Part shown: positions 2,307 through 63,840 of the stretch, in pieces
Numbering within the stretch: position 1 is the first letter of the stretch
Layout of the letters: each line of letters begins with the position of its first letter
Source: Cyanidioschyzon merolae
Lineage: Eukaryota
Assembly (NCBI GenBank): GCA_000091205.1
Contig: AP006495.2
Reading direction: 5' to 3' (one strand)
DNA length: 64,000 bases
Translations under genes and position numbers: made by a program
The notes under the pieces: model-generated
What the model was told of the DNA's origin: nothing
What the model saw: the letters and a program-made list of their open reading frames with translations, nothing else
Databases searched by the model: none

Positions 2307-2318
2307 ATGAAAAACACG

Positions 2319-4444
2319 TCACAGAGTTACTAGCTCCACCGAAAGACTTTCAAAAGTCGATAGCTTGAATATCAGTATACAGTAGTGGCGAGCTGCGCGC
2401 CCCAGATCATACGTCTCCAACTGATGCGCAGATGCCTCCCTGTCTTTTTTGGACCGGCCATCTACTACTGGTTTCAACTTGTTTCCGTAAAATTCCGCCT
2501 GGAGAGGTTCCCCCACAAAGTTGGCTCTTGTCAACTCTGGAGGCCTTCTTTCCATCACCGCACATCTCCTGATATTGATAGCGACATTAAAGTCTCGGTT
2601 CACAAACTCCATACGTTTCTTGCCATCATTGGTTGTACTAACCAATGCGATTAGTCCACGATCTTTCGCCCTCCCTTCCGGTGACTGCTTCGTCAGCGCT
2701 CCGTACTTTGATATATCCACAGGACTCCTCTGGCACTTTTCGATCTGCACGCTCTGGAGTATGCACCCCAGCTCATGGTGTGTATACGATGTTCGGAACT
2801 CATCTACAGGTATCGTAACGAGACGCCTTGTGCACTCCTTGTACGCTCTTGTCGTCGGAGCTGGTGGACATCCTTTTTGGGTCATCCAGCGCCCTGCTCC
2901 GCACGCTACTACGAGCCTCTGACTTTCATCCTCTTTGAAGGCACTCAACTCATTGAAAAAATTCGCGAATGCACGCGGTTTCCCACAATACAAGTTCATA
3001 CGCAAACGAGCCCACCGGGGCTTTGCATACTCATTCCACAGTGCATCCCAATGAGCAACGCGAACTTCCATGAATTCCTGACAAGCTTGAAAGTCTGCTC
3101 CGCGGCTCGTCATCTGGTTCATAGCTTCAAGGTGCTCTTGCATTCCTGCATTTCACGTCTCATTTTTCCCTCGCATTCAGTATTCCCGACTCTCGGTGAT
3201 ATCCCGCTCGTGAGAGGTTTAACTGATGCATGTCTTTCTGGCATAAATTGCCTTCAATACCATCCTCCGCACGCTTGGGTACTGCGATGTTATGATATTC
3301 GTATTCATAGGGTCCGCGCCATCGACAATGTCGTTCTCATGCACTTCCTGCGTCGTAGGATACACCTGCTTCTTTTCTTCATGCTTCGTCATGGGCGATA
3401 TCGAAGACGGACCAGTACGATCTGTCTCCAAGCGCCGATTGTGTACATATATGGCTACTCCATCGCGTTCGATCATCCCCGTGAGTACATTTCGCTTGTC
3501 CTTTTTGTGACGTTTGAAATCGAAGATATTCTTCCAAGTACGTCTCCTGCTTTGTACCGGTGAACTCTGTCTTCCTTACATCGAACTCCGGACAGATCTC
3601 CTTCATGATGCCGTACAGGATTCTGGAGTCGATCGTCACAACGCGTGACTTGATGTTGCACAACGGCAGGACGTTGAAGTGCTTCCCCAGAAGCGCAGCC
3701 TTCCGTTTCTCCGACTCTTCATTTTTTCCCGCGCCTACGTCCTTTCCAGTCTTGCGTTCCAGGTCTCGGTCCAAAAACACGAGATAGTGCAGGATTAGGG
3801 TATAGGATCCTTTACCATATTTTTCCATATTTGATATTTTTTCTTGTGAATTCGGCAGCCCCAGTACCGCAAGGTGCTTTCGAATAGCCGCGCGGATCAC
3901 AGAAGCTTCATTCCTTCTCCCGCGTGACATCTTCCCGTCGACGAGTTCGATCTCTTGTGCATTCTTACTCTCGTTCGCGACGCCATTGATCATGGCTCAT
4001 CTCCCTTTCCGAGCGAGACCCGGGTACAGCGCATAGACGGCGCGTACCATGAAGCGTTTGACGTTCACGGTCATCTGATTCCTCAGGTTCGTGAGGTACT
4101 TCATTGCCCCGTAGGCGTAGACCTCCGCGAGTCACCTCTGTATCTAGAACCGCTGCAGCGGTATTTGGGTAATTCTCGTTGAGGGCATGCACTCGCTCAT
4201 TTTCGTCGACGTTTCCCCTCTACCAACGATCAAGTGGCAAATAAAGGTCCTGCTGAAAAAAATCCTCCGGAACCGCGACTGTTTTGATGTCTGTCAGGTC
4301 GCGATACATCCATTTCACCAAATGCATTAGTCCTGAAGGAGCCTTTACATTACTCACGGAGTATGACACGACACGGTTTCTGATGGCCTCTCGCATCTTT
4401 GCCTTGTACGCATTCTTGGTATGTCCAAGAAGACAGACTTTCAC
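2319..4444 (-). pseudogene. Fanzor-like RuvC nuclease, frameshifted (copy A)
   Basis: Three overlapping reading frames are needed to follow the protein homology seen in copies B and C. The acidic repeat (KHEEKK...NDxVVD) is present as one unit. The N-terminal part is heavily diverged. Confidence 0.65.
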
Positions 4445-4870
4445 ACCGACTCTTCATACTGTCGCCTTTCTTGCAGCCTTTGATGTCGGGCTTCCTTCTT
4501 TTGCTCCTTCGTCTCGTCCTGTTCTTCTTTGCTTAGCACTATTTTTCATTCTCTCCGTAAGTCGGCGACACTGTGCCTCCGGGATCCTCCACTTGCTTTT
4601 CCATACCTTTCCTTTTTAATATTTTATGAAAAATAACGCTCGTTAAACGCGTCTGGTAGAAACCGCGAAAAATCACTTTCGTTCACTGACTTGAGGATTA
4701 GAACACAATTGAATTGAAAAACTATACGTTGCCACGACTTTAATGCAAATACAACTTGACCGGTAGAGCAACAAGACAACGAATGGTCACGAATGCATTT
4801 CCCTTCAAAGGCGACATGCGCGTCGTGTCTCGAGGCTGCCAGGTTTGGAGATGCGCGTATCGAGCGCGCT
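2330..4870 (-). mobile_element. Fanzor/TnpB-like element, copy A (decayed)
   Basis: Minus-strand ORF pieces 4220..4444, 3379..3993, 3219..3476 and 2319..3143 together align to one ~700-aa protein. It carries RuvC-I (VDGADPMNTNIIT), RuvC-II with a zinc-binding segment (TIPVDEFRTSYTHHELGC...EKCQRS) and RuvC-III (FVNRDFNVAINIRRC, about 2570-2597). Frameshifts fall near 3480 and 3200. The conserved 5' flank (to about 4870) and the 3' tail (to about 2330) are shared with copies B and C. Confidence 0.75.
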
Positions 4871-5757
4871 ATATAGAACAAAGAACAGAGACTCACTTGT
4901 AACTAGCAACGAGATAACGAGTTCTTTCCCTGTGTACGATCAACGTCAAAAATGGGGAAAAGATTTCCATATTGTCCAAAATATTCCTCATAGACGGACG
5001 GTCCCGCGAGCCGGACAAGTCTACCAGGCTGGTGCTTCCTGCTCCCCCAGCGGCAGGCGCTTTCGTGAACTCCGAGCAGCACGTCCGCAACGCCATTCAT
5101 TGTGGAATTACAAGTCGGCAGAATGCTTCTGGGCGTGTCGCCCTGGTCGCAGAGGGCTCCTAATACGCTGCTTCACGCTGCCGCAGGCAGAGGGTCTATC
5201 TGCCCAGGTATCAGCCTCTCAAAATGATATTTAGCCCTGATTCCGTAGCAGATGGAGCACGCCTCGAGCCGACGCCCTCTGTGGTATAAAAAAGCCGTTC
5301 TAGCTCTATGAACTATCTGCTCCAGCTGTTCAGGCGCAAAGGCGGATACGGAAAGGCAGGTACTCGGCGCACGATAGAACATAGGAGACGACCAGCATAT
5401 CCGAGAGGAATTATGGTTAACGAAGCTTGAAGGAAGGGTGCAGCATGATGAAAGCTTTTGAGCTTTCCAATATCCATCCCGCAGTCTGGGATCCGTAGTC
5501 CATACAAACGTGCTGTCATCGAAAAGCAAAAAATCGGACACACAGACTCGACGCGTCGACGGCGCTACGTTTGGCGGCTAGCGGCCTGGTGGCGCCTTTT
5601 CGCTGGGCGCAATTCGCTGCGGCGGACTGACTGAATGGGCGATAGCGCGGCAGCCATTGGAAGGCCGCGCTGTGGTATGTACGGAACCTAAGACGCTGGA
5701 GTCGCATGGGGTTGGACTCTTGACCAAAGAACCCTTCAACTTCTCCTTTGTGTACAT

Positions 5758-8789: not shown

Positions 8790-9060
8790 CGCAACGGAAC
8801 GAAATCGTTTCACGAACACAGGGTAAATGAATACCCATTCACAGACTCCTTCAAACCTTTTTCGACCGGCCGCCTGTTATCGCTTTAAGCTTCTCCTTGT
8901 TGAATTCGAGCCTGAGAGGCTGTGCGAAAAAATCAGATCAAAGCAGCTCCTCGGGTCAAGTCTTCGTCAACGCATATCTCCTGATTCTTGTTGCAGTGTT
9001 AAGGTCTCGGTTCACGAATTCCATGCGTTTATTGCCTATGGTGGAACTCACCAATGTAGG
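8790..9060 (-). mobile_element. solo Fanzor 3' fragment (degenerate C-terminus plus tail)
   Basis: Reverse-complement translation reads GNKRMEFVNRDLNTATRIRRYALTK. The downstream segment cttttttcgaccggccgcc matches the conserved tail motif ttttctcgaccggcc. This is part of composite repeat (i). Confidence 0.55.
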
Positions 9061-9189
9061 GAGTCCTCGAACTCGCGTCCTCAAAGCCATTTCGCTGCTC
9101 TGTCAGCTCTCACTTATTTTCTATATCCTAAGCGCTGCGCTACCCTCTCCCCGTCAAGACCTTCTAAGTTGTACACCCTAGATCACCTC

Positions 9190-13609: not shown

Positions 13610-14728
13610 GCCGGGCATTTCGCGGATAACCGGTACCAGCATCTTTCTCAGCGTTCCCGACGACGATTCCTGACCCTCTCACCGCGACAACCTGTATGCA
13701 TTGGATGGGGCAGTTGAGGCTTCTTCGCTTTCCGCCATGTCGTCTCACATATTGTTATGTATTCACGAAGCTCGAGACAAGTTCCTGCCTCTCGGGTGGT
13801 TGAATGTCGAGGATCCGCAGATCCATCCAGAACCCTCCGAGTGCACGAAACCAATATTTAGCAGCCTCTAGACCCCAAGATAAAATGCGAACGCGCCAGC
13901 GTTCTATCAACCACATTGCCGTGTTTCTCTTCAGATTCGTGCACTGAACGATCCCGCCATCCCGCGCACGCCGTGCATGCTGCAGTCGCGTGCGATCGTG
14001 CAGGAAGCGCCACCGCCATCGCCGCGCGCAGCGTCGACCGCTCCGCGTGCGCTTATGGAATCGGACATCCGCTGTCGTACGCGTGTTTGTAGCTCGCTTG
14101 CGTATCGCTGATGCATTCGATTGGAGCATGTAGCGCATGAAGTGCATCGGTATTGCGGGTGCGCTATGAAAAATATTCCAGGCATCCGCCCGGCTCCAAA
14201 GAAATCGCACATCCGCTCTAATCCGCATGCGACCCCGCACAAGCGCGCCCGCGATGCGGGGTGTGCGTGGCACCGCCCCCGAGCCCCGGTGCGCTGATTC
14301 GCTGCGCGGCGGCGGCGGCACTTATGGTCTTTGCGAGCGCGCTGGCCCAGTGGGCACGCAACAACTGCTGTCGGCGATCGTCGTCCGCGGTGGAAGGTGC
14401 GCGTCGCGGGCGCTGTGCCGCCGCTGCCCCCTACGATGATGGAGCTTCCGCGACGCTTGCCGCACATGTGGGCAGCGCATTTTTGTTCAATGATGGATGA
14501 AGCGGACATCTCTCGTGCGTCGCGCGCCACGCTCCACGTGTCCAGGTTTATCCAGGGCGGCCATTGGCGCGCTGTCCCGTCGGTTTTTGCTTCAAACGCA
14601 TCGTTTGGCGAAAATGGCGCTCGTTGCACGCTTCACTGCGCGGGAGAGCGCGTTCGTTCATAACTGACGCACCGCCCCAGAGTATACAAAGCAGTTCGCA
14701 AAGCAAAGAGCGTTGACTGGACTTGACT

Positions 14729-15862
14729 ATGACAGAGGAGGAAATAACAGCTCTTGTGATCGATAATGGTTCTGGGATGGTGAAAGCGGGTTTCGCGGGA
14801 GACGACGCGCCCCGTGCAGTTTTCCCATCCATAGTGGGACGTCCGCGACACCAAGCAGTCATGGTTGGCATGGGGCAAAAAGACTCTTATGTGGGCGACG
14901 AAGCGCAGTCGAAACGCGGTATCCTATCGCTCAAGTACCCGATCGAGCACGGCATCGTAACGAACTGGGATGATATGGAAAAGATCTGGTACCACACTTT
15001 TTACAACGAGTTGCGCATCTCCCCCGAGGATCATCCAGTGTTGTTAACCGAAGCACCTTTGAACCCGAAAGCCAACAGGGAAAAAATGACCCAGATCATG
15101 TTCGAGACGTTCAACGTTCCCGCGATGTACGTCGCGATCCAGGCAGTATTGTCGTTGTATGCTTCGGGGCGCACCACGGGTATTGTCGTCGACAGCGGCG
15201 ACGGTGTGACGCACACTGTGCCCATCTACGAAGGCTATGCCTTGCCGCATGCTATCATGCGCATAGATCTGGCTGGACGAGACCTAACCGACTATCTCGC
15301 CAAGATCCTTACAGAGCGCGGATATTCATTCACGACGACAGCCGAACGAGAGATCGTGCGAGACATCAAGGAAAAATGTTGTTATGTGGCACAGGACTAC
15401 GATCATGAGTTGGAGATTGCCTCATCGCAGCCGGCGAAAATCGATAAGCAGTATGAACTCCCCGACGGACAAATCATCACGATTGGGAGTGAGCGTTTCA
15501 GATGCCCGGAGGTGCTCTTCCAGCCGTCCTTGATCGGTATGGAGGGCGAGGGTATTCATAATGTTGCTTATCAGAGCATCATGAAATGCGATGTCGACAT
15601 CCGGAAAGATCTGTACGCAAACGTGGTTCTCAGCGGCGGCACGACGATGTTCCCAGGCATCGCGGATCGGATGCAGCGGGAACTCGCTAGTGTTGCACCA
15701 TCTTCGGTGAAGATCAAGCTTGTAGCGCCAGCGGAGCGCAAATATAGCGTGTGGATCGGCGGCAGCATTTTGGCCTCGTTGAGCACTTTTCAGCAGATGT
15801 GGATTAGTAAGGCGGAGTATGACGAGTTCGGACCCTCTGTGGTACACCGCAAATGTTTCTGA
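14729..15862 (+). CDS. ACT: actin
   Basis: Intronless 377-aa ORF from the first ATG at 14729 (the track start 14723 is a TTG). Canonical actin sequence throughout ([28 protein letters not shown], ...[20 protein letters not shown]). TGA stop. Confidence 0.97.
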
Positions 15863-17510
15863 GGCAGACGCTTGAAGCGCTGGAGAATTCCATTCCAGAC
15901 CGGTGCGAATCCGGCGTCGGTTATCCTGATTGGAGTTATGGTAGAGTCTGCGCGAAATGCAACGTAAAAGGACGGTTGCTCGGGTGTCCTTCCTGTGAGC
16001 GCATTACCCCCGATATTCCAAGCAACGCAGCGATCATATCGTGGAATCGTAGTTTGAACGCAGAGCTTGTTCCGCTGTTGCGAAGGGTCGGCTGCTGATA
16101 GTGTTGCTGTCTTTGGCAGATATCCATCGCTGAAATGGCAAACATGAAAGCTGCTCCACCGTGCTGTGGTGCCCGCACCGACGCGATCGGCGTCATAGCG
16201 AGTGCTCGCGGTGAGCTCGGCACCCGGGGATTGTACGAACTGACGAATATTCCCAAAGGCAAGTATGGGCGAGGGCACCTGTATCTCGGGGGTGGTTCAG
16301 CGCCGAATGCAGCACGCTCTCCGGGACGCGCATCGCAGTCGTGAAGTCGGAGATCCGCCGGTTCTCTTTTTTATTTGGTAAAACATTTACACACAGGCCA
16401 GCGTTGCTCATCTGTGCGTTTGATACCAGCGCGCGGTGAAGCATCCATCGCTCCACACCCTACTTCCAGGCTCCGTAGCCCATACTTCTTCTCGGGTATA
16501 ATGGTGGTTTGATGCTTTCAATCGAGCACCTAGTGCCTTCCCTGATCGTCCGCTATAGCGCCTATAGCGCCGGTGCGGTTGCAGCACGGAGACGGAACGG
16601 CTTTGCAGTACCGCGGAGGGCATCGGCTCGAGGATTCCCTGGCTCATGTGAACGCTGCTACATACAAGAAGCTCGTCAATGATAGAATATACCAACCTTG
16701 AAAATTGGCACTTTCAAAGAGGACACCAGTCTGTGTTCGACTGGAGCATACTGGAGCCAGGCGCAGTCCGCTGCAAAGGCATCCGGAGGGTTCCGTTTGC
16801 GCTTCCTGAATTCCCACTACTCCCACCAAACACGCTGAGCGGCGGTACGCCCTTTTAGAGCAATTGAAAACCGCAGCATAGTTCTTTTCAAAGCTGGACA
16901 ACGAGAAACCATCGCTGCGGCAAGCCTTCGTATCCACGTCTCCCTCTCCGCTTCTAGAGTGTGGTTGCCCCTTGTCGCGGATACAAGCCTCAGGCGCCTA
17001 TTCACGATAGACAGATACAGCCCACCGGTCTGCGTCACTCCTAGAGAAAGGCGCACCAAACGCACACATTTCCCACCACTGATTCTATCCAACCATTCTT
17101 AGTTGCGACTTTTTTGGTGTAGGATCGTTTACAGTAACCAACGGTTCCGGAGTGCCGCATGGCTTTCCCTAACTGGGGCCTCAGATACCAAGCGCCGGCT
17201 GGTCGTGCGCGCCGATGCCATGTACGACCAGCCGTTAACGAAATCGCAGCCGACGGATCGCTGCGCGCATTTTTGAAACGCCTCGAACTGGGGCGAGTGC
17301 TCCCGAGCGGCACTTCTGCTGACGTCGAGGACGTTTGCCTGCACGATCTTTGCGGAAACGAAGGTGCCGACAGACGTTGTGCTCGGCGCTTTCTTATTCC
17401 AGTGCTTGTCTGCAGAAATTCCGTCGCGAGAGATATTTGTGTGGCGCACCATCCGTCAGACTTGTATAACGGTGCTTTCTGGTACTCGTTGCCGCCGTTG
17501 ATTTGGAGCT

Positions 17511-27974: not shown

Positions 27975-28789
27975 GTTTCCCCTTCACTGACTTGCCGGAT
28001 TGCATTATCATCATTGAAGGCAAGGCCTCCGCGGAGCAATATTTGAAACGCCATCTGCAGCATCCTCAAGGATGCTACTGCTAGTGATTCCGTCATGGGG
28101 GGCGCTGCCAGCTTTCCGGTAGCTGTGATGCCTGCAACTTTGCTGGTACTCTGTTCCCTTGATGCATGATTGGAGCGAATCTTCGGTTTGTGTACGTTAG
28201 CGAGCATGATGAGATGCCACGTGCACTGCGCCTGCGTCGGTTTCATGTTATGTGGAGGCTTTGAGGATCAGAATGGATGTGACGGCCATGAAAGCAAATG
28301 TGGCATCCTAGAATTGCGATGGAACGCAAAAGAAACGATGCCTAGTGCTGACCTCCCAAAGAGGAAACGGCAGAGGATGCTGGCAGCTCCTTTGCGATGG
28401 TGCCAGACCTTGATGGACATTTGATCCACGGGTTATCCCTACCTAGTGATAAACGACTTGTCCGTGCCAGTGGAACGAAGACTCCAGCGTGCTTGTATAC
28501 GTTTCATAATCTTTCACCTACATTGTGTTCCGGCCCTAGGTGGGTGTAATCAAATGCTTTTTCGAGGTTTATAGCAGATTCGCTCGAAAGGCGTTCTTTT
28601 TCAGAAATCGAAAATCTACAAAATGGTTTGGACGTGGAAATTGGGGGTCCCGGAGTTCCGTTGTCCCCGAGTTCAACAAAAAAAGGAAAAAATCCTCTTC
28701 TCGCCAACCTCGCAGCGAAGAAGAGCATGTTACGAAGATGAAGATTGTGACGAGACTGTAGTGGGACAGAGGGTACGAGTTCGAGGAAT

Positions 28790-39560: not shown

Positions 39561-41782
39561 GTACGTTTCTTGCCATCATTGGTTGTACACACTAATGCAA
39601 GCAGCCCTCGCACTTTCGCCCTCGTTTCCATTTGCTCCTCCATCAGCGGTCTGTACTTTGCTATTTCCTCAGGGCTCCTCTGGCACTTTTCCATTTCGAC
39701 CCTCTGAAGTGTGCACCCCAGCTCGTGGTGTGTATAGGACGTTCGGAACTCGTCTACAGGTATCGTAACGAAACGCCTTGCGCACTCCTTGTACACCCTC
39801 GTCGTTGGAGCTGGCGTAGTGCCGTTCTTGGGCGCCCAGCGCCCTGCCCCATACGTTACTACGAGCCTCTGACTTTCATTCTACTCGAGGGCGCTCAATT
39901 GATTAAAAAAATTCGCGAACGCCCGCTGCTTTTCACAGTAGAGATTCATTCGCAACCGAGCCCACCGGGGCTTGGTGTACTCCTCCCACAGCGCATCCCA
40001 ATGCGCAACGCGAACTTCCATGCATTCCCGAAAAGCTCGAAAGTCCGCTCCGCGGCTCGTCACCTCGCTCAAAGCTTCCAGGTGATCCTTCATTCCTGCT
40101 CTCCATGCCTCGATTTTCTTCCTTGCATTCATGATTCCCGATTCTCGATAGTACCTCGCTCTCGAGAATCTCAAAAGACGCATATCTTTCTGACGTAAGT
40201 TACCGTCAGTCCCATCTTCCGTACGCTTCGGTGCTGCGATGGTTATGATATTCGTATTCCCGGGGTCCGCGCCAAGGACAAAGTCGTTATCTTGCACTTT
40301 CTGGGTCGCAAGATCCGCCTCCTTCTTTTCTTCATGCTTCGCCGCGCTAACGACAATGTGGTTATCCTCCATCTCCTGCGTCGCAGAATCCGCCTCCTTC
40401 TTTTCTTCATGCTTCGTCACGTCAACGACAAAGTCGTTCTCATGCACTTTTTGCGTCGCAGGACCCACCTCCTTCTTTTCTTCATGCTTCGCCTCGTCAA
40501 CGACAAAGTCGTTATCCTCCACCTCCTGCATCGCAGGATCCTCCTCTTTGTTTTCTTCATCTTTCGTCACGGGCGCAGCTGAGGGAGGGACTGACCGATC
40601 TTTCTTCAACCGCCGATAGTGTACACACAAGGCTACTCCATCGGTTTCGATCATCCCAGTGAACAACTTTTGCTCGCTCACTCTCAGACGTTTGAAATTG
40701 AAGATATTCTTCCAGTACGTCTTCCGGTTTTCGCCGGTGAAGTCCTCCCTGCTAACAATGAACTCCGGACTGATCTCCTTCATGATGTCGTGAAGGACTG
40801 CGGAGTCGATAGTCACAAAATGTGACTTGATATTGTACAATGGAACCGCGTTGAAGCGCTTACCCATTAGGAAGGCCTTCCGTCTCTCCCACTGTTCATT
40901 TGTCTCTTCACTCAGCTTCATCTCTACTTTGCGTTCGAGTTCACGGTCCAGAAACACAACTTAGCGCAGGACGAGGCGGTAGTATCTTTCCTTATCTTTT
41001 TTCAGCTCTGATATCTTGTCTGTTGGATTCGCCAGACCCAAAACTGCACGGTGCTCTTCTACAACTGCACGGATTACAGAATCCTAATTTGTGCTCCTGC
41101 GTGACGCCTTCTTGTCGACAAATTCGAACTCATCTTCACACTGTCGATTGTTCGTGATGCCATTGATAATCGTCCATATCCCCTTGCGAGAGACGCCGGG
41201 ATAGAGTGCAAACACGTCGCGTATCATGAAACGTTCGTGGTTCATCGTCAATTGGTTCTTCAGGTTCGTAATGTACTTCATTGCCCCGTATGTGTAAATA
41301 TTTCCGTCACCGCAGTATCGATTACCCTCGAAGCAGAATTCCGCGAAGTTTTCGTGGAGGACTTCCACCCGCTCATTTTCCCTCCGCGCTTCCTCTGTAC
41401 CAAGCATCAGCTGACGAATAAAGGTCTTATCGAAAAACTCGTCCGGAATCTCGACCGTTTCCATGTTCGTCACGTCGCGATACATCTCCCTCGCTAGATG
41501 CATCAGTCCTGACGACGCCTTGAAAATACTCTTGGAGTACGAATCGAAACGTTTTTCGAATGCGTCTCGCATCTTTTCCCTGTAGTGATCCTTGATATGT
41601 TTAAGAAGACCGGCTTTCGCCACCATCTCGTCGTACAGTTGTCTTTCTTGCCGCCTTAGACGTTGAGCCTCCCCCTTTCGGTTCTTCTTCTCTTCCTTTT
41701 CTTCTGGACTCGGTACTGTTTTTTGTTTTTTTCTGGCAGCCGGCGACCCTGGACCTCCAGGATCGTCGATTTGCTTTTTCAT
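39353..41782 (-). pseudogene. Fanzor-like RNA-guided RuvC nuclease homolog, interrupted by stops and a frameshift (copy B)
   Basis: Three consecutive ORFs align colinearly to copies A and C. Catalytic D (RuvC-I), E (RuvC-II) and D (RuvC-III) motifs are all present in this copy. Confidence 0.75.
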
Positions 41783-42756
41783 AGCTTTCCTATTTTAGTT
41801 TTTTTGAAAAAGAATGCTCTTTGAACCCTTGTGTTACATACAGCGAAAAACACTTGACTAGACTTGTTTGAGGGCTGAAACAGAAACGAGCTGAAAGACT
41901 GTACTTGGCTACCACCTCAACGGATATCCGACTTTTTACAGCTGAACAACACGCTCCTGGTCAGCATCGCGTTTCCCTTCAACGGCGGCATGTGCATCGC
42001 GTCAGTTGACTGCCTGATCTCCGAGATGCGTTCATTAAGCGCAATGCGTCCACCGCACGAGACGCCACTCCGATCGATGAAGGACACGTGTCCGACACCC
42101 CGCATTGGCACATGCGTGTTCGCATCGCATTGCAGCCAAACTAAAGTATCGAAAATAGGAAACTCATGTAGAACGATCTCTTGCTATAGACTCTGTCGCT
42201 GGTGCCGAAGCTACTGCCCATCGCAGTACCGCCTTGACATACATGGAAATGTTGGGACCTGACGCGATACCTCGCGATGCTTCTATCAAAAGCATAGCGT
42301 TCTCTGCGGCTTACCGTTGTGTGGATGACGTATGCATCACTCTTCTCAAAAGGAATTTCGTTAGTTTTATTCATCGTAACCAAACTAGGTACGGTGGGAT
42401 TCCTGAACACGGACATACGTTTAATGCCGATGCTTGTCATGCATGCTGCACTGACGCTGGAATGAGGAACTGACCTGAATTATGCTTCTATCCTGCGTCA
42501 TAGGCTGGTACTGGTGACCGTTCAAGTCATTTCCATGCTATCGTCGTAGCCAACTTATGGTGCCCGCTACGTTCCCCGGATCCGGTGATCATGGTAGAGG
42601 CACACCACACATGTAGCGTCCATATCTGCCAAGACGTTCGAGCCTTGCATCTCGGCTGACACGATCGAGGAACCCGACAAAAGCACATACTGTATTCTGG
42701 TCTACTCCATAAGATTAGCTTCAAGAGCCTAACCCGTACATCGACGACCGCACACG

Positions 42757-43126
42757 CACACAAAACGCCGTTCCAAGTCGAAAGACGGCAGTGTACAGTA
42801 GTGGCGGCGAACGCGCCCTAGACAAAACGTCTCCAACTGATGTGCAGATGCTTCCTAGTTTTTCTCGACCAGTCCCCTGCTATCGGTTTCAGTTTCTCCA
42901 CGTTCACTTGGGCCTGGAGAAGCTGTCCCACAAAGTTGGTTCGCTTCAGCTCTGCGGGTCCCTTCTTCTGCACCGCAAAGCCCCATATATCAATAGCAGC
43001 ATTGAGGTCTCGCTCCACGATCCCCAAGCCTTTATTGATGCTGCTTGGACCGACCAGTGCAAGTCGTCCTCGAACTCGTGCCCTCTGTGCCAATTCCTTC
43101 TTTATCAGGTCTCCGTGTTTTTCCAT
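42757..43126 (-). mobile_element. solo Fanzor 3' fragment, part of composite repeat (ii)
   Basis: ORF 42818..43126 reads ...RARVRGRLALVGPSSINKGLGIVERDLNAAIDIWGFAV.... A well-conserved tail (cagtagtggcggcgaacgcgccctagac...ttttctcgacc) lies at 42757-42900. Confidence 0.65.
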
Positions 43127-43176
43127 CGCCGAAACGCCCCGCTGGCTCTTCTTAAAGTCGACGTTCTGAAACGTAC

Positions 43177-44135
43177 ATCCCAGCTTACATTTCCCGTGAA
43201 TTTTTCATTTCCTCAGAATGAACGCACTTCTTCGCGCCTCTAGGCGACGACCTGCCCGGAGACAGACGGACCTGCGGATGGACGACGATATGTGCCCCGG
43301 TGCGTTACATTGCGGTGCACGCTTCAGCGATTCGCCATGTGCAGCGATCATCACGTTTCACGAAAGGAAACACTCCTTCGATGCGGCTCAACCATGGACT
43401 GTACGAAGCAATGGAAAGCAGCGCTACCCCGATAGAATCGGCAAAGCCCGGGCGCGACGGGAAATAGTGCATTGGCGTATTGTCCTATATAAAAGGATAC
43501 GGCCAGGCGTCAGGGGGTGTGTCTTGAATGACTCGACGAAGTGGCTGGTGCTCTTGTATGAGCCTTCTGCAACAGCGAAACGGAGACCTCGAAATGAGTC
43601 CGCTGCAGCTGGAATAGATGATGATTTCCGAACTCTCCTTGAGTTTGGTGTTAGATATGAAGGGCGCCCTGTATGCGGATGCCCATGTACGATCCGGCTG
43701 TTTCGCGCGAAGGAGGTCTCGCCGGCTGAGCAACCGAACAGAAGCCCCTACGCCGCATACCGGCGGAGACGTTCCAGGAACTCTGCCGTTGCGATTTATG
43801 CGGAAGACAGGCATGAATGAAACAGGACTCTTTTTTGCGACTGTGTCGCAATGTCTCCAGGGCCGCACGAACGAGATGTCGACAAACAAAGACGACCGTG
43901 GTGGCTGCTATCGTCGCTTTTGGTTTCCGCAGAGTGCCTGTTGGGGCGCTTTTCTACGATTGACCGAAAACTTGCTTTAAGAATATCTGTTTACGCCGCG
44001 GAGCGAATGCACACTATTCCAGCGTTTCTCAACCATGTGAGTTCTGTGGTATGAGTGACCTGAAGAAAGAATGCAGTACACCTTGCACTGTTCAGAAACG
44101 ATATATACCCTACAGGCAACTCATCTATAATCTAT
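43177..44135 (+). repeat. ~950-bp 'MNALLRAS' repeat unit (copy 1), near-identical to 62899-63840
   Basis: Direct comparison of the two stretches shows >97% identity with one small indel near 43510. Its ORFs are not preserved between copies, so it is probably non-coding. Confidence 0.8.
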
Positions 44136-51373: not shown

Positions 51374-51972
51374 CTAGGTAGCTTTTCCGTAGACACCCAG
51401 AATTTGTTTCAGCTCTCCACTGCGGTACATACTCTCCATAATATCGCTCCCTCCAATGAATTCGCCATCGACAAATAATTGCGGTATGGTGGGCCATTGG
51501 CTGTACTTTTTGATCGCCTCCCGTAGAAGCGGGTCCGCTAGCACATTATACGACTGGAACGGAACCCCCATGGCTTTCAGGATGCTCACAGCTTTGTAGC
51601 TGAAGCCACAGAGTGGGGCCTCGGGTTCCCCCTTCATATATAAAACAACTTTGCTCGACATGACGTCCCGCTCGATGCGCTCCATGACGTCCGCCCAGTC
51701 AGCGTCTGACGGCTGTTGCTTCCGCTGCGGTTGAAAGTCCGGGTGTGAGTTCCCTGAAGGGGTCTGCGAGGAAATAGCGCTATAAAGACGAAGGCCTCTC
51801 GCCCGGGGCGAAAAAGTTCCGTGATGATGCACAATGTGCTGCTGGCGACTGCAAGCAGCTGAAAAATTGCGGAAACGACCCCAAGCTGTTTCCAACTGCC
51901 CAGCACCCCGGTGCAGCTGCACGAAACCCATCAATAGCTTGGTCCCAGATACACCAAAACTCTTTGTCGCCA
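51374..51972 (-). CDS. GRX5: monothiol glutaredoxin (Grx5-type, CGFS active site), probably mitochondrial
   Basis: VVLYMKGEPEAPLCGFSYKAVSILKAMGVPFQSYNVLADPLLREAIKKYSQWPTIPQLFVDGEFIGGSDI. ~90-aa N-terminal presequence. The first ATG at 51972 sits inside the terminal ggtgtgATGgcgac of the Fanzor copy C right end. Confidence 0.85.
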
Positions 51973-51974
51973 TC

Positions 51975-54625
51975 ACACCGCAAAACGCCTTTCAAAAGAC
52001 AAAAGCTGTCGCCGGCAGTGCACAGCAGTGGCGAGTGACCCGCCCTGGACAAGACCTCTCAACTAATCTGCAGACGCCTTCCAGCTTTTCTCGACCGGCA
52101 ACCTACCAGTGATTCCAACTTTTTCTCATATACTTCCACCTTCAGAGATTGTTCCACAAAATTCCCTTTTGTCGGCCCGGGAGGTCTCTTTTCCATCACC
52201 GCACATCTACGTATACTGAAAGCGGCGTTAAAGTCTCGGTTCACGAATTCCATGCGTTTCTTCCCGTCCGTCCGACTCACTAGTGCGAGTCGCTCACGAA
52301 CTTTCGCCCTCCTTTCCATTTGCTCCTCCGTCAGCGGTCCGTACTTTTTTATTTCTTCAGGGTTCCGCTGGCACTTTTCCATCTCGGCCCTCTGAAGTGT
52401 ACAGCCCAGTTTATGGTGTGTATACGATTTTCGGAACACATCTATCGGTATCGTAACGAAACACCGTGCATACTCTTTGTAGGGTCTTTTCGCTGGAGCT
52501 GGCATAGTGCCTTTCTTGGGCGCCCATCGTCCTGCTCCGAATGCCACTACGAGCCTCTGACTGTCATCCTCCTTCAAGGCGCTCAACTCGTTGAAAAAAT
52601 TCGCGAATGCACGCTTCCTCCCACAATACATGTTCAGTCGCAGACGAGCCTACATGGGCTTCGAATACTCCTTCCACAGCGCATCCCAATGAGCAACGCG
52701 AACTTCCATGAACTCCCGAAAAGCTTTAAAGTTCGCTCCGCGGCTACTAGCCTCGCTCATAGCTTCCAGGTGATCCTTCACTCCTGGATTCCACTTCTCA
52801 AATTTCTTCCTCTCATTCATCATACCGGATTCTCGGTAGTATCTCGCTCTCGAGAATCTCAAAAGACGCATATCTTTCTGACGTAAGTTACCGTCAGTCC
52901 CATCTTCCGCACGCTTGGGCACAGCGACGGCTATAAAATTCGTGTTTCCAGGGTCAGCGCCAAAGACAAAGTCGTCCTCATGCACTTTTTGCGTCGCAGG
53001 ACCCGCCTCCTTCTTTTCTTCGTGCTTCGCCTCGTCAACGACAAAGTCGTTATCCTCCACCTCCTGCATCGCAGGATCCTCCTCTTTGTTTTCTTCATCC
53101 TTCGTCACGGGCGCAGCTGAGGGAGGGACTGACCGATCTTTCTTCAACCGCCGATAGTGTACACACAAGGCTACTCCATCGGTTTCGATCATCCCAGTGA
53201 ACAACTTTTGCTCGCTCACTCTCAGACGTTTGAAATTGAAGATATTCTTCCAGTACGTCTTCCGGTTTTCGCCGGTGAAGTCCTCCCTGCTAACATTGAA
53301 CTCAGGACTGATCTCCTTCATGATGCCGTAGAGGACGCCGGAGCCGATAGTCACAAAATGTGACTTGATATTGTACAATGGAACCGCGTTGAAGCGCTTA
53401 CCCATCCGGAAGGCCTTCCGTCTCTCCCACTGTTCATTTGTCTCTTCACTCAGCTTCATCTCCGCTTTGCGTTCGAGTTCACGGTCCAGAAACACAACTT
53501 AGCGCATGACGAGGCGGTAGTATCTTTCCTTATCTTTTTTCAGCTCTGATATCTTGTCTGTTGGATTCGCCAGACCCAAAACTGCACGGTGCTCTTCTAC
53601 AACCGCACGGATTACAGAATCCTAATTTGTGCTCCTGCGTGACGCCTTCTTGTCGACAAATTCGACCTCATCTTCACACTGTCGATTGTTCGTGATGCCA
53701 TTGATAATCGCCTATATTCCTTTGCGAGAGATGCCCGGGTAGAGTGCAAACACGTCGCGTATCATGAAACGTTCGTGGTTCATCGTCAATTGGTTCTTCA
53801 GGTTCGTAATGTACTTCATTACCCCGTATGTGTAAATATTTCCGTCACCGCAGTATCGATTACCCTCGAAGCAGAATTCCGCGAAGTTTTCGTGGAGGAC
53901 TTCCACCCGCTCATTTTCCTCCCGCGCTTCCGCTGTACTAAGCATCAGCTGACGAATAAACGTCTTGTCGAAAAACTCGTCAGGAACATCGACTGTTTCC
54001 ATGTGCGTCACGTCGCGATACATCTCCCTCGCTAGATGCATCAGTCCTAAAGAAGCCTCAGGAAAACTCATGGAGTCCAACTCGCAACAGTTTCTGATGG
54101 ACTCCCGCAATTTTTGCTTTTACGAATTCTTGCTATGTCCGAGAAGACAGGCTTTCACGACCATCTCGTCGTACAGTCGTCTTTCTTGCAGCCATTAACG
54201 TAGGGCCTCCCCCTTCTGCTTCTTCGTCTTGTCTCGTTCCTCTATGTTTGGCTCTATGTATCGTTTTTTTCGCCAGCCAGCGATACTGGCCCTCCAGGGT
54301 CCTCCACGTCGCTGTCCAGAACATTGGTTTTTTATTTTTTGAAATAGAACGCACTATGAACGTCTCTGCTCTAAACCACGAAAAATACTCGAATACTCTT
54401 ATTTGAGGGTTGAAACACAACTGAAATAGAAGCCGTACTTGGCTACGACCTGACCGGAAATCCAACTTTTACATTACGGCCACACGCCAGAGATTAAGAT
54501 CACGTTTCCTTTCAACGGCGACATGCGCGTCGTGTCTCATGTCTGCCTGATCTCCCGGGTGCGCTCACCAAGCGCAATGCGTGCACCGCGCGAGACGCTG
54601 CACCAATCGATAAAGGCCTAAGATC
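51975..54625 (-). mobile_element. Fanzor/TnpB-like element, copy C (pseudogene)
   Basis: ORFs 53712..54110, 52650..53495 and 52059..52631. RuvC-I FGADPGNTNFIAV. RuvC-II is degraded to IPIDVFRKS (E to V). RuvC-III is degraded to RDFNAAFSI. Two TGG-to-TAG nonsense changes (about 52645 and 53700). It shares the same TAG/TAA in-frame stops as copy B (53500-53640). Two acidic repeat units. Confidence 0.8.
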
Positions 54626-57574: not shown

Positions 57575-58090
57575 CGCTTACACCGCTGGCAAACGCCTTT
57601 CAAAAGTCGAAAGCAGTCGTCAGCAGTGCACAGTAGTGGCGGCAAACGCGCCCTGGACAAAACGTCTTCAGCTGAACTGCCGAAGCCTCACTGTCTCTCT
57701 CGACCGGCCACCTACAACTGGCTTCAACTTCATTCCGTACAATTCGACCATGGAAGGCTGCCACACAAAGCTGGCTCCTGTCAGCTCCTCGAATCGCTTC
57801 TCCAGCACCGCGCATCGTCTGATATTGATAGAAGCATTAAAGTCTGGGTTCACAAACTCCATGCGCTTCTTGCCCCCGTTGGTTGTACCCACCAGTGCGA
57901 GGAGTCCTCGAACTTTCGCCCTCATTTCCATCTGCTCTTCCGTCAACGGTCTGTACTTTTCTATATCCTCAGGGATTGGCTGAAACTGCTCTATCTTGAC
58001 CCTCCGGGACGTACACCGCAGCTCGTGGTGTATATATGATGTTTGGAGCTCATGTATCGGTATTGTGACGAAGCATCGTTCGCAATCCTT
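57575..58090 (-). mobile_element. solo Fanzor 3' fragment (longest; includes the RuvC-II region)
   Basis: ORF 57668..57946 reads ...RAKVRGLLALVGTTNGGKKRMEFVNPDFNASINIRRCAVLEKR. 57950-58090 aligns to the copy A DEFRTS region. A conserved tail (gcctttcaaaagtcgaaagc...cagtagtggcggcaaacgcgccctggac) lies at 57575-57700. Confidence 0.65.
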
Positions 58091-58719
58091 GTACGCTCAT
58101 TCCGAGTCGCTGTTAACCGGAAACGATATTCTCCTCGAAAAGCCATGAAAGTGGTGCTGTGGCTTTCCGCCAGACACGGTGGCTGCTTTTGCCGTGCCCA
58201 TGGCCCTGCAGGCGTGTTTCAGGGTGCGCTGACTGCACAAAAGCGCCGAGTTCGCGCTGCTGCCCTAGCATCTGGGTGCTGGCAGCTCCACAGCACAGAT
58301 ATCTCATGATGTGCGGGTGGAGCATGCTGCTTCAGCACCGTAAGAACGACGCGCTCTCATGCGCGTTCCCCCATGATCCAAGATGTAATCCATAGAGTGA
58401 TACTGGCGGCTATCACCGAGCGTCTTGCATATAGAATGCAAATCTGGGAACTGCATCCTAGGGCTCGGAGTTCCATGTCACGAACAGTGCATATGCTCAA
58501 GATCGGTGCTCGAAGCGAACGCGCTGTACACCATACACTGCATTGCTGCACGAGAACAGTGCTATGCTCGGGGCCGGATAGAGTACCTTACGAAAAGTCA
58601 GCAGGAACGTCGCTTTCAGGTACGGTGCGTGACACGGGCCAGGCGAGAGCGATCCGTTTGCCCCTCACTTCGGAATGCGAATTCGCTGTTCATGAGTGTC
58701 TTCCCGTAGTAATGCCTCT

Positions 58720-59010: not shown

Positions 59011-59269
59011 ATAGAAAATCCGTGCGAAAGGTATGGACATGAAATCTAGGGATTCCGGAGGGCTGTCATTGCCAGGCACCGGGAAAATGGAAATAATCCC
59101 CTTCTCGTCGACCACTGAGCGAAGAAGAGCAAGTGACGACGACGACAAAGAAGAGAATAGATAGGCGAGAAAAGATGCATGCCCGACGAGACGCAGGCGA
59201 TTCTTGAGTAGCACAGAGGGCGCGAGCTCTTAGAATCTTCGCATAGATGAATTCAGTCAGCGGCAATAA

Positions 59270-59520
59270 ATGAAAGGTATTCGTGAACCGAGACTTCAAC
59301 GCCGCCATCAACATCAGGTGATATCTGGTGTCCAGGACGAGACCCGAGGATCTGAGGCGATCCAGCTTTGTGGGGCAGCCTCTCAGACTCGAATTGCAGA
59401 AGGAGGAGCTGAAACCGATAGCAGAGGGGCTGTCTAAAACGGGCTTGGAGGTGTTTGTGAGTGGATATTGATTTATCATGCATCGCTGCCGAACGTTTGT
59501 AGTTTCACGGACGATGGGCA
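59270..59520 (+). mobile_element. solo Fanzor 3' fragment
   Basis: 59274-59320 reads VFVNRDFNAAINIR then a stop. Next comes ...SSFVGQPLRLELQKEELKPIAEGLSKTGLEVFVSGY and the tail gggcttggaggtgtttgtg. Confidence 0.6.
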
Positions 59521-59910: not shown

Positions 59911-61083
59911 ATGTCGCACCGCAAGTACGAAGCTCCACGGCACGGGTCGCTTGGCTTCCTTCCCCGGGGAAGAACGAAGCGTCACAGAGGACGCGTGCGC
60001 TCCTGGCCACGGGACCCTGGACCAGCTGTGCCGCCACACCTCACTGCTTTTCCGGTGGTAAAGGCGGGCTGCACACATGTTGTGCGGCAGATCGATCGTC
60101 CTGGAAGCAAGGTCCACAAGAAGGAGGTCGCTGAACCTGTCACGATTCTGGAAGCGCCCCCGATCGTGATCTGTGGTATCGTTGGTTACAGCGAAACGCC
60201 CCGCGGCCTTCGAGCAATAAGGACGGTTTTCGCAGAGCACTTGAACGATGAAGTGAAACGCAGGTTCTACAAAAACTGGTATCGTGCGAAGAAGAAGGCC
60301 TTCACCAAATATGCGCTGGCCAAATACTCCATGGGTGAATACCGCAATGATCTAGACACCATACGCCGACACTGCAGCGTGGTGCGCGTCATTGCGCACA
60401 CCCAGCAGCGAAAGTTCCGGTTACGCCAGAAGAAAGCACATATCTTGGAAATTCAGATCAATGGCGGCACTATCCCTGAAAAGGTTGATTTTGCGGAGCG
60501 TCTGCTGGAGAAGACCGTTTCGATCGATGACGTAATCTCTAACGATGAAATGGTCGATACCATTGGTGTTACGAGAGGTAAGGGTTTTGAGGGCGTAGTC
60601 ACGCGCTTCGGTGTCCGTCGTCTGCCTCGGAAGACGCATCGTGGACTTCGAAAAGTGGCATGTATTGGAGCGTGGCACCCGGCCCGGGTGCAGTTTACTG
60701 TTCCTAGGGCTGGCCAGAGAGGCTACCATCATCGAACTCAAATGAATCTCAAGGTTTACCGAATCGGCAAGAAAGGTGATGGTAAGTCAGCAACGACCGA
60801 GTATGATCTCACGGAAAAGGGTATAACCCCGCTCGGTGGATTCCCACACTACGGTGTCATTCGTGAGGACTGGGTTATGCTTCGCGGCGCCGTGCAAGGT
60901 CCTAAGAAGCGTCCTATAATCTTACGCAAATCCCTATTCCCGCAGATTAGCCGTCGTGCTCAAGAAAAGATAGAGCTCAAGTTCATCGACACCTCGAGCA
61001 AGTGGGGCCACGGGCGTTTCCAGACTGCCGCAGAAAAAGCCCGCTACATGGGTGTTCTCAAGCGCACGGCCATCAGTACCTAG
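59911..61083 (+). CDS. RPL3: 60S ribosomal protein L3 (uL3)
   Basis: [27 protein letters not shown]...[40 protein letters not shown]...[14 protein letters not shown].... Intronless, 390 aa. One divergent stretch ([27 protein letters not shown]) differs from the usual uL3 sequence here. Confidence 0.93.
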
Positions 61084-62462
61084 TCATCCGCTCGTTCCTT
61101 GACTTGCGGCAAATTATAGAGCCATATTCCAAATAAGAGCACGCCTAAACCGAGCAGGACCATAAACGAAAAACGAGACTGGACCAGCAGCGGTACTGGC
61201 AGGCAGAAAACTAGCGTTGTTAGCGGCACAGAAATCAACGATGCAACCACGGAGTCGAGAGCGGATGCGATTTTCAGCAATCGCAAACCCGTGATGTTGA
61301 ATACAATATTCACAGCAACGTACGCAAGAGCTAGCCACGGCATCCAACTGCTCTCACGCCCCGCAAATGTGCTGAGTGCACTAGAAAAGTAATCGCCAAT
61401 GGAGGGGCTTTCAGCCAAGCGAGCTGCAAAAGGTGTTGTGAAAGGCAGCATGAGCGAGATAGCAGCAAACTGCATGAGGCTCGAAAAAGTATTGACAATG
61501 AACAGATCCGGTTGCACGCCACTTCGTTTGAAAACGCGCTCTTTGAGTACAACGGCTAAGGCAACGAATGCGTAGGATCCGAAGAATAAAAACGCATTCA
61601 TCCATACGCCTCCCGAAGAGAGATTCAAAGCTGCTTCGTTCACAGTTTGAGGGCCAATGGAAATCAGCACACCGGCGAGGACAACAAGCATGCCATAAAT
61701 TTGGGTGAGCGTGTAGCGACGACCTAGCAGAGCATACGAGGCCAAGGCAATGAATATGAGGATTCCTTGATTCAGTACTGGAAGCAGAGCACCGGGAAGC
61801 CGAGAAGCAGTAAACATACCGATTACGAAAGTAAGCGCCTCCAGTGCCCCAATGAGGGCGAACAGACGCCAGTTATTCACTGCCCACTTGACCTGCGTCA
61901 TAGGGACAATACGCATGCGCACTCGTATCCAGAGAATAGAGGCATAAACCAGCACGTAGCACAAGGTGACAAAAAGTGAGAGGAAAAATGTGTACGAATA
62001 CATTATCTGCAAGTCCATCCGGTAAACTACGCGGTTCAAGACCGATAACGCCACGTACGCTGCAGTGGTCAACAGCACGTCAGACGACACCCGCGTCGCT
62101 ATTCTACCACCCGTTTTTGCAGTTTTATTCTGCTGCATGAGCAAAGAGGCTTTCCGCATTTCAACGGGTCTACTTCGGGGTGCAGTAAAGCGGGGTCCAG
62201 GCTCCACGGGGCACCCCGCAAACGTTACTCGTGCCCTAGCGCCAGTCGAGCGGAAGGCTTGGTAAAGCCGACTGACAGGCGCTTTATTTACCTCCGCTGG
62301 ACTAGCAACATGATTTCTACGGGCAAAGGGGTTAGACTTTATGGAGTGAGCGGAACAAAACTGTGATATCCATCCACTGTTGGTGAACATTGCATGCTCA
62401 TCTTTGCCACCAGAACGAAAAATTTGCCACCGCCGGGTAAATTCATGCTCGCGCGCAGACAT
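61080..62462 (-). CDS. CRT-like transporter (PfCRT/CLT family, DMT superfamily), ~10 TM
   Basis: [11 protein letters not shown] resembles Pf[80 protein letters not shown] resembles [72 protein letters not shown]...NTFSSLMQF...LPF resembles REIVFKKYKI...NAMVSFFQLF...LPV. ATG at 62462 lies inside Fanzor-derived sequence, so the start is uncertain (alternatives at 62393 or 62156). The 3' end overlaps the uL3 stop by 4 bp. Confidence 0.65.
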
Positions 62463-62764
62463 CTGCTAGCCTCTCTCGACTGGCTACCTGCTACAGGATT
62501 CAGTTTCTTTTTGTACATTTCTACCCTGAGAGATTGCCCCACGAAGTTGGCTCTTGTCAGCTCTGCGGGTCTCTTCTTCAGCACCGCACATCTCTCGATA
62601 TTGATAGCAGCATTAAAGTCTCGTTTCGCGTACTCCTGGCGTGCATAGTCGTTGGTTGAAGTCATCTCTCCAGGAATTTCTGGTAATCGTTCCCTCTGTA
62701 CCACGTTAGTAATGTCATCGCCCCGTCGGTCAAAAGAGTCTTCTCGGCTGTCTCCCTTTTTCAT
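62345..62764 (-). mobile_element. solo Fanzor 3' fragment, part of composite repeat (iii)
   Basis: ORF 62339..62764 reads ...YARQEYAKRDFNAAINIERCAVLKKRPAELTRANFVGQSLRVEMYKKKLNPVAG. The tail motif gcagacatctgctagcctctctcgactggc is at 62455-62490. The fragment overlaps the 5' end of the CRT-like ORF. Confidence 0.6.
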
Positions 62765-62898
62765 ATTCTTCTTCTACGTCATCGTCACTTGCTCTTCTTT
62801 GCTTGATGGTCTTCGAGACGAGAAATTTTTCATTTTCTTTCGAGGCCGGAGATGACGGCCCTCCAGGATCTTCGAATTCCATGTGCTAACGTTTCCCA

Positions 62899-63840
62899 TG
62901 AATTTTTCATTTCCTCAAAATGAACGCACTTCTTCGTGCCTCTAGGCGACGACCTGCCCGGAGACAGACGGACCTGCGGATGGACGACGATATGTGCCCC
63001 GGTGCGTTACATTGCGGTGCACGCTTCAGCGATTCGCCATGTGCAGCGATCATCACGTTTCACGAAAGGAAATACTCCTTCGATGCGGCTCAACCATGGA
63101 CTGTACGAAGCAATGGAAAGCAGCGCTACCCCGATAGAATCGGCAAAGCCCGGGCGCGACGGGAAATAGTGCATTGGCGTATTGTCCTATATAAAAGGAT
63201 ACGGCCAGGCGTCAGGGAGTGTGTGTCTCGAATGACTCGACGAGGTGGCTGGTGCTCTTGTATGAGCCTTCTGCAACAGCGAAACGGAGACCTCGAAATG
63301 AGTCCGCTGCAGCTGGAATAGATGATGATTTCCGAACTCTCCTTGAGTTTGGTGTTAGATATGAAGGGCGCCCTGTATGCGGATGCCCATGTACGATCCG
63401 GCTGTTTCGCGCGAAGGAGGTCTCGCCGGCTGAGCAACCGAACAGAAGCCCCTACGCCGCATACCGGCGGAGACGTTCCAGGAACTCTGCCGTTGCGATT
63501 TATGCGGAAGACAGGCATGAATGAAACAGGACTCTTTTTTGCGACTGTGTCGCAATGTCTCCAGGGCCGCACGAACGAGATGTCGACAAACAAAGACGAC
63601 CGTGGTGGCTGCTATCGTCGCTTTTGGTTTCCGCAGAGTGCCTGTTGGGGCGCTTTTCTACGATTGACCGAAAACTTGCTTTAAGAATATCTGTTTACGC
63701 CGCGGAGCGAATGCACACTATTCCAGCGTTTCTCAACCATGTGAGTTCTGTGGTATGAGTGACCTGAAGAAAGAATGCAGTACACCTTGCACTGTTCAGA
63801 AACGATATATACCCTACAGGCAACTCATCTATGATCTATA
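62899..63840 (+). repeat. ~950-bp 'MNALLRAS' repeat unit (copy 2)
   Basis: Near-identical to 43177-44135. Ends with the shared ...ttctcaaccatgtgagttctgtggtatgagtgacctgaag...cctacaggcaactcatctat. Confidence 0.8.

Follow-up and report, generated by a model that had tools for sequence, protein, structure and literature searches.

How can two copies of a mobile element, lying at unrelated sites, come to carry exactly the same disabling mutations? The question is raised by a stretch of 64,000 nucleotides from Cyanidioschyzon merolae 10D chromosome 13 (the window), which holds three long copies (A, B and C) of an element with a Fanzor-type nuclease gene. A sequence-only reading had reported that B and C share two premature stops, and concluded that the element kept spreading after its nuclease frame was broken, mobilised in trans by an intact copy elsewhere. 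The core observation is real, with corrected details; the interpretation is partly right. The explanation that we regard as probable is that A, B and C are decayed members of one known family, and that the shared stops reached C by ectopic gene conversion of a B-like tract.

All three copies belong to CMe-1A (also CMe-1), a Fanzor1 family of C. merolae described by Bao and Jurka (2013, Mob DNA 4:12; PMC3627910) and held in Repbase. According to that description, there are about 150 copies, each ~80% identical to a 3169-bp consensus with a single-exon ORF of 734 residues, and some copies are still intact; the element has no terminal inverted repeats, its target-site duplication is not determinable, it encodes no transposase, and its 5′ 635 bp are common to a second repeat, TE-N2_CMe (PMC3627910). 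The published consensus, taken from the paper’s supplement and aligned to the window by blastn, matches A, B and C at 82-89% identity. Host proteins encoded in the window are identical to entries for C. merolae 10D chromosome 13, among them BAM81075.1 and CYME_CMM239C. The window copies also share with CMe-1A the host organism, the single-exon ORF, and the lack of terminal inverted repeats and of a transposase; neither a second long ORF nor a TnpA (Y1) transposase gene was found within the window’s elements, and the published description has none either. The family, its age, the missing transposase and the mostly decayed state have thus been known since 2013; the paper gives no account of individual copies, of the alternative 5′ module of copy B, of a variable 75-nt repeat or of mosaic copies.

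Self-comparison of the window yields three long minus-strand copies, besides several fragments limited to the 3′ end:
2343-5521, minus strand: copy A, full-length CMe-1A; consensus 1-3137 at 82.5% identity (window 5521-2375).
39286 to about 42744, minus strand: copy B, nearly intact CMe-1A; consensus 661-3137 at 84-89% (42030-39326).
51977-54616, minus strand: copy C, 5′-truncated and heavily decayed CMe-1A; consensus 671-3169 at 84.6-84.9% identity (blastn; 54552-51986).
8842-9185, minus strand: CMe-1A 3′-end fragment.
42788-43185, minus strand: CMe-1A 3′-end fragment (consensus 2740-3140), head-to-tail directly upstream of B.
57594-58098, minus strand: CMe-1A 3′-end fragment (consensus 2665-3169).
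59262-59393, plus strand: CMe-1A 3′-end fragment.
62452-62636, minus strand: CMe-1A 3′-end fragment.

Fanzor1 proteins are eukaryotic relatives of TnpB and act as RNA-guided DNA nucleases; the element’s 3′ end is the expected source of the guide RNA. The assignment of the window genes to this type is borne out by profile comparison with solved Fanzor1 structures (E 1e-27 to 1e-17). A profile search of a sequence library retrieved 3939 relatives, from which a 60-sequence profile was built; this matches Parasitella parasitica Fanzor1 (PpFz1, 9cf0; E 1.5e-27), Spizellomyces punctatus SpuFz1 (8gkh; E 1.5e-21) over profile positions 11-612, almost the full length, and Guillardia theta GtFz1 (9cer; E 2.5e-17). 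The depth of the profile was needed: a shallow profile of 7 sequences had no match in the PDB, and Pfam had none for the repaired B protein. The motifs GADPGNT (RuvC-I), VDEFRT (RuvC-II) and NRDFNAA (RuvC-III) are found in the family consensus, in the published CMe-1 protein and in copies A and B, and lie in register with the same motifs of SpuFz1 and PpFz1. The Asp-Glu-Asp triad of a split RuvC domain is therefore present in the family, in A and in B; in C it is broken (Glu to Val).

In its likeness to SpuFz1, GtFz1 and PpFz1, the C. merolae protein shows homology over nearly its whole length, with RuvC-I DPG, RuvC-II DEF/DEY and RuvC-III NRD aligned; it differs in its low identity to them and in a weakly scoring TNB motif (Pfam 12 bits versus 26). 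For the TNB/zinc-ribbon family PF07282, sequence P0001 reached 12.1 bits against a cut-off of 26.3, and sequence P0024 reached 34.4 bits; a Cas12f1-like TNB domain was matched at E <= 0.001 in 16 of the 60 aligned relatives. An AlphaFold2 model computed on a 26-sequence alignment (pLDDT 39) was too poor for use. Taken together, the profile matches support membership of CMe-1A in Fanzor1 beyond mere resemblance, and by homology its ORF would encode an RNA-guided nuclease.

Is any of the three copies still capable of making this protein? Frame translations contain no open frame in A, B or C, and a three-way alignment confirms three homologous copies, each with one large disrupted ORF, so that the window holds, as had been proposed, fossils of the system. 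The state of decay differs from copy to copy. Copy A, which carries a TE-N2_CMe-like 5′ module (5521-4880), has GAA (Glu) at codon 233 and TAT (Tyr) at codon 274. Its frame is indeed disrupted by frameshifts, of which two had been counted; the alignment gives 10 frameshifting indels and, in addition, three TGA codons, one of them at Trp203.

Copy B has one continuous frame of 809 codons, from the ATG at 41782 to a TAG at 39355-39353, with zero frameshifts and three in-frame stops:
41086-41084, minus strand: TAG233, shared with C.
40963-40961, minus strand: TAA274, shared with C.
39883-39881, minus strand: TAG634, private to B (GAG in A and C).

The first two stand where A encodes Glu and Tyr, as had been reported. 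A frameshift placed near 39800-39880 proved instead to be the in-frame TAG634, which precedes RuvC-II and RuvC-III. At the 3′ end of copy B the terminal hairpin is perfect; the 5′ module (42744-42085) is unlike TE-N2_CMe and common to at least 7 environmental copies. With its three nonsense codons, B counts as a copy that died recently.

Copy C is a much older wreck. It is truncated at 54616 and has no 5′ module, and its 3′ hairpin is lost. Its coding region contains the following features:
54317-54319, minus strand: start codon lost (CTG, versus ATG in A and B).
near 54272, minus strand: 1-nt deletion.
54197-54195, minus strand: TAA42, private stop.
54122-54120, minus strand: TAA67, private stop.
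53714-53712, minus strand: TAG203, private stop at Trp203 (TGG in B, TGA in A).
53624-53622, minus strand: TAG233, shared stop.
53501-53499, minus strand: TAA274, shared stop.
52652-52650, minus strand: TAG607, private stop at Trp607 (TGG to TAG).
52439-52437, minus strand: RuvC-II Glu to Val (GTG in the VDEF motif; GAG in A, B and 58 of the copies scored).
52235-52233, minus strand: RuvC-III Asp kept (GAC, NRDFNAA); only the adjacent Ile-Asn is changed, to Phe-Ser.
near 52059, minus strand: 1-nt deletion.

In all, C has lost its ATG and has two frameshifts, six in-frame stops and the RuvC-II substitution. The identical TAG/TAA pair, the two further TGG-to-TAG changes and the loss of the catalytic Glu had all been recognised in the sequence-only reading; the lost ATG, both deletions, TAA42 and TAA67 had been overlooked, and the degradation of RuvC-III was overstated, since its catalytic Asp is retained.

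A wider sample of the family places these lesions in context. Environmental metagenomes supplied 80 further copies, which represent about 55 distinct loci, none of them from strain 10D itself; the alga whose populations these metagenomes contain is the same or a close relative, as some host proteins are identical to those of the window. No locus orthologous to A, B or C occurs among the 80 environmental loci. In 68 of 77 other copies, codon 233 encodes Glu (GAA or GAG); in one, an unrelated copy, it is a stop (TAG). Codon 274 encodes Tyr (TAT or TAC) in nearly all of the 77 and is a stop in none. The pair of TAG233 and TAA274 is found in no other copy among the 77 compared. Nonsense mutations do recur at other sites, namely at Trp203 in six copies and at Glu634 in four. 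Short conversion tracts were considered for the recurrent TAG634 and rejected, as there is no local rise in identity around it; the recurrence fits per-site rates.

The reading of these codons as stops is itself open to challenge. If short introns, read-through or recoding dealt with them, B and C could still be coding, and the single frame of B over 809 codons with no indel, together with a dN/dS below 1 within the region that B and C share, might be taken to point this way. In an alignment, however, the stops fall exactly on codons for Glu, Tyr, Trp and Glu, both in more than 70 copies and in the published protein, whose ORF has one exon; there is no change in length. At the positions of the window stops, the published protein reads Glu, Tyr and Trp (PMC3627910). 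The host genes of the window speak against the same idea:
14723-15862: actin, ending in TGA.
59911-61083: uL3, ending in TAG.

These two stops had already been cited in favour of genuine nonsense codons, and the wider set agrees: 15 host ORFs of up to 1498 codons run uninterrupted and end in TGA (9), TAG (5) or TAA (1), in line with the standard code. C. merolae has very few introns. Moreover, TAG634 would cut B off ahead of two RuvC motifs, and C also lacks its ATG and catalytic Glu. A variant genetic code and introns were therefore rejected on the codon-for-codon alignment, the uninterrupted host ORFs and the published one-exon ORF, and it is very improbable that B and C still code for the protein.

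Evidence on how B and C came to share their stops lies in the divergence between the two copies along their length. A two-breakpoint maximum chi-square test on the B-C alignment, with 200 permutations, delimits a block (B 41510-40140, C 54048-52828) in which B and C differ at 54 of 1220 sites (4.4%). Outside it, they differ at 338 of 1413 sites (23.9%), as far apart as either is from A. The maximum chi-square is 196, versus about 9 under permutation, and this value was reached in 0 of the 200 permutations. The two sides of the block are as follows:
52828-54048, minus strand: B-like tract in C, holding both shared stops; patchy, with a near-identical core at ~53920-53005.
40140-41510, minus strand: matching tract in B, holding TAG233 and TAA274.

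Sliding-window identity between B and C is 70-74% in the 5′ 700 nt, 92-100% in the central block and 76-85% in the 3′ 900 nt. The tract extends over about 1.2-1.36 kb, with approximate edges, and on the B side it includes two extra 75-nt repeat units (40438-40289). Copy A is equidistant from B and C throughout, and A-B and A-C identity are lowest in the central block (65-72%); slow evolution of this region can therefore not explain the block. The mosaic lies in the 10D reference chromosome, and its 3-4% internal divergence speaks against a collapsed assembly. By the window self-comparison it was confirmed that B and C resemble each other only as far as the ends of the element, with unrelated genomic flanks beyond. 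The two copies have the same orientation and lie about 12 kb apart.

The near-identity of the sequence around TAG233 and TAA274 shows a single origin of the two stops in B and C, whatever chance is estimated for the alternative. According to that alternative, the two nonsense mutations arose separately in B and in C, by RIP for instance. It could appeal to the recurrence of nonsense in unrelated copies (at Trp203 and Glu634); at per-site rates of about 3%, however, the joint chance of both stops is roughly 1 in 1000. The substitution spectra show nothing unusual (transition/transversion ratio 1.1-1.3, no CpA or CpG excess), so RIP-like or CpG-driven hypermutation was rejected, and the changes TAT to TAA and GAG to TAG are both transversions. 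The proposal is already refuted by the surrounding block, which is 96% identical overall and contains the stops; there is next to no probability left for it.

A sharp change of divergence inside two otherwise distant copies with unrelated flanks is the pattern expected of gene conversion, and the distribution of identity and lesions points to C as the recipient. B has ~85% identity to the family in all three segments, whereas C reaches 87% in the block but only 75% on its 5′ side and 81% on its 3′ side. Likewise, C has six private disabling lesions in the ~1.06 kb of coding sequence flanking the block and one within it. On these two grounds, C can be read as an old copy that was overwritten in the middle. 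The one private lesion within the tract, TAG203, would then have arisen after the tract was shared, because it lies inside and is private to C. The event was not recent, as the tract is patchy and 3-4% diverged. Pure drift after conversion would give a dN/dS of 1 within the block; the 15 synonymous and 20 non-synonymous differences counted there correspond to 0.35, a lower value, which we attribute to probable unconverted patches of old divergence.

The sequence of events may be pictured as follows. The copies would have diverged at a time when selection still acted on the protein in their lineages, and each inserted copy would then have decayed, B recently and C far longer ago. Later, homologous recombination (ectopic gene conversion) would have copied a tract of ~1.2-1.36 kb into C from a donor that was B or a very close relative of B, with TAG233 and TAA274 already on the donor tract. 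Two otherwise distant copies would share exactly two stops because the copied tract already carried both. Both the mechanism and the direction, from a B-like donor into C, are inferred from the pattern of identity; a third, unsampled copy could also have converted both B and C. C. merolae is known to repair and integrate DNA by homologous recombination (PMC3764038).

The first of these steps finds support in the RuvC half of the gene, where dS is 0.55-0.68 and dN/dS 0.2-0.3 for all pairs. The low dN/dS indicates that selection for the protein was acting in these lineages while most of the divergence built up. The same argument on selection was made by Bao and Jurka (PMC3627910). Some intact CMe-1A copies are on record, but none is intact in the window or among the 55 environmental copies examined, and a fully intact ORF was found in none of 81 loci. 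The best ORF belongs to one locus that was sampled three times (L001/L005/L006); its frame slips near codon 22 and is closed by a stop ~35 codons ahead of the usual end. When 77 copies are combined into a consensus, an intact ORF of 809 codons results. Copy B is three point reversions away from an open frame and, like this consensus, offers a practical starting point in the search for a working Fanzor of C. merolae.

One competitor of gene conversion is the view that a master copy with TAG233 and TAA274 kept transposing in trans, that B and C are its daughters, and that their low identity outside the block arose later. This agrees with the sharing of both stops in sequence of clearly common origin and with the unrelated flanks of B and C, and as CMe-1A has no transposase, any movement of its copies is in trans in any case (PMC3627910). 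If B and C stemmed from one master, however, they should match over their whole length, and they are 24% apart outside the block. Two extra conversions flanking the block of one copy would be needed, whose donors were not found among the sampled copies; the flanking parts of C match no sampled copy above 76-82%, and no sampled copy other than B and C has the stop pair. Whole elements that are near-identical at different loci would also be expected. Whole-length near-duplicate pairs with scorable flanks are the same locus sampled twice, except possibly L053/L078, and recent sharing between loci is seen as partial blocks: in six other pairs, blocks are 0.4-3.7% divergent inside and 15-25% outside, in short-read metagenome contigs, where the assembly of repeats may create chimeras. 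Transposition from a broken master is thus unlikely, and the earlier conclusion that the element spread after its nuclease frame broke does not hold for B and C, whose near-identity is confined to the block.

The appeal to an intact copy acting in trans fails at its premise. In bacterial relatives, TnpA moves the element and TnpB promotes its retention (PMC10055086). CMe-1A has no transposase (PMC3627910), and since its nuclease corresponds to TnpB and not to the mobiliser, the state of the nuclease ORF says nothing about what moves the element. CMe-1A resembles the IS200/IS605 elements (PMC10055086) in having a TnpB-like nuclease that is not the transposase, and a conserved 3′ end with a terminal hairpin at the boundary; it differs in lacking TnpA, in its eukaryotic host, and in a non-coding 5′ region of ~0.9 kb with exchangeable modules.

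A further possibility is that C was already chimeric when it inserted, either because a B-like broken element and an older one had recombined or because the polymerase switched templates. The same mosaic pattern would be predicted, and tandem or nested arrangements could favour such events. It would, however, require the mobilisation of an element with decayed ends (ATG, 5′ module and 3′ hairpin lost), and with B only ~12 kb away in the same orientation, local conversion is simpler; insertion as a chimera is accordingly improbable.

Ectopic gene conversion is familiar from yeast Ty and from human L1 and Alu elements, in which inactivating mutations spread between copies without transposition. 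Conversion of a B-like tract into C resembles these cases in the tract of near-identity within diverged non-allelic copies; it differs in that the B-C case is known from its sequence pattern alone, with a putative donor. Lesions shared by transposon copies are not in themselves proof of continued movement of a broken element. Since resident copies can pass lesions to one another by gene conversion, their divergence has to be examined over the full length. This methodological lesson is the useful one, as the B-C case is ordinary transposon decay and matters little beyond bookkeeping.

A more far-reaching idea would give the nuclease itself a part in the exchange. A still-active Fanzor1, guided by RNAs from element ends, might cut within or beside resident copies, and repair by homologous recombination would copy tracts between them; mosaics would then be the rule in the family and the B-C tract one footprint. 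If true, an RNA-guided nuclease would drive sequence exchange among its own fossils, including the spread of dead alleles. We hold this to be quite improbable.

The 3′ end of the element, from which such guides would come, is conserved as far as an abrupt boundary (...GAAAGGCGTT) and is closed by the terminal hairpin, which exists in two sequence versions and is kept in about half of the copies. For the last 181 nt of B, the predicted fold is more stable than those of shuffled sequence (z = -2.3); with 40 copies of the 3′ end, RNAalifold yielded neither a consensus structure nor covariation. In its position, this end would fit a putative guide (omega) RNA terminating at the element boundary. 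Tandem and nested arrangements of elements exist. Copy C is located upstream of a glutaredoxin gene (window 51374-51973).

In the family CMe-1A of Fanzor1 elements, premature stops recur at particular codons of the 809-codon Fanzor frame. Trp203 is replaced by TAG in copy C (53714-53712) and in the environmental metagenome loci L015, L040, L043 and L051, and by TGA in copy A (3999-3997); Glu634 is replaced by TAG in copy B (39883-39881) and in L059, L067/L076 and L079. At both codons the recurrence counts are about what is expected from per-site substitution rates of 3-10%, and among the copies sharing the Glu634 TAG there is no local rise in similarity around it. The stops at these identical codons arose in unrelated copies.

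The most nearly intact environmental copy lies at 5718-8428 of L001 (L005 and L006 represent the same locus). It has only two defects: the reading frame slips near codon 22, and a stop follows ...NFIG, approximately 35 codons short of the usual end. Because several further predicted proteins terminate at the same NFxG position, it is possible that this early stop reflects a shorter natural C-terminus.

Modules, repeat arrays and isolated pieces of the family occupy the following segments of the window.

4880-5521, minus strand: 5' module of copy A, of the published type resembling the repeat TE-N2_CMe
42085-42744, minus strand: 5' module of copy B, approximately 660 nt, different from that of copy A
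16439-16634: isolated piece matching the TE-N2_CMe-like 5' module of the published CMe-1A consensus (positions 65-257), apart from any Fanzor ORF
28506-28691: second isolated piece, matching consensus positions 787-969, immediately 5' of the ORF
40267-40560, minus strand: 75-nt repeat array of copy B, 3.9 units
52961-53104, minus strand: 75-nt repeat array of copy C, 1.9 units

Comparison of 42085-42744 with 4880-5521 indicates that 5' modules are exchangeable in this family. The copy B module is common to L008, L039, L044, L045, L052, L054 and L070 at 78-85% identity; copy C, which terminates at 54616, has neither module. The TE-N2_CMe-like 5' module has also been described as a separate repeat (Bao & Jurka 2013, PMC3627910), and the piece at 16439-16634 agrees with this status. 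The 75-nt tandem repeat, which encodes 25 Lys/Glu-rich residues just upstream of the first catalytic motif region (RuvC-I), is variable in copy number: copy A and the published consensus each have one unit, and L025 has more than copy B.

A CMe-1A fragment comprising only the 3' end (43185-42788) directly precedes copy B head-to-tail, with little or no spacer in the junction region (42744-43185); two tandem copies also occur in L033 and L034. A 218-bp repeat is found at 43183-43400 and 62885-63102 with 97% identity between the sites, and at both it adjoins CMe-1A 3' fragments that are mutually only ~73% identical. It may belong to a separate repeat family, or it may mark a second exchange of recent date.

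The ATG of the glutaredoxin gene (51973) lies only a few bases from the 3' end of copy C, on the same strand (interval 51973-51986). In the environmental copy L022 (4137-6545), the 3' end of the element is joined in frame to an ORF downstream of it, which by eye resembles a glycerol-3-phosphate dehydrogenase. Same-orientation insertions directly upstream of host start codons may be non-random.
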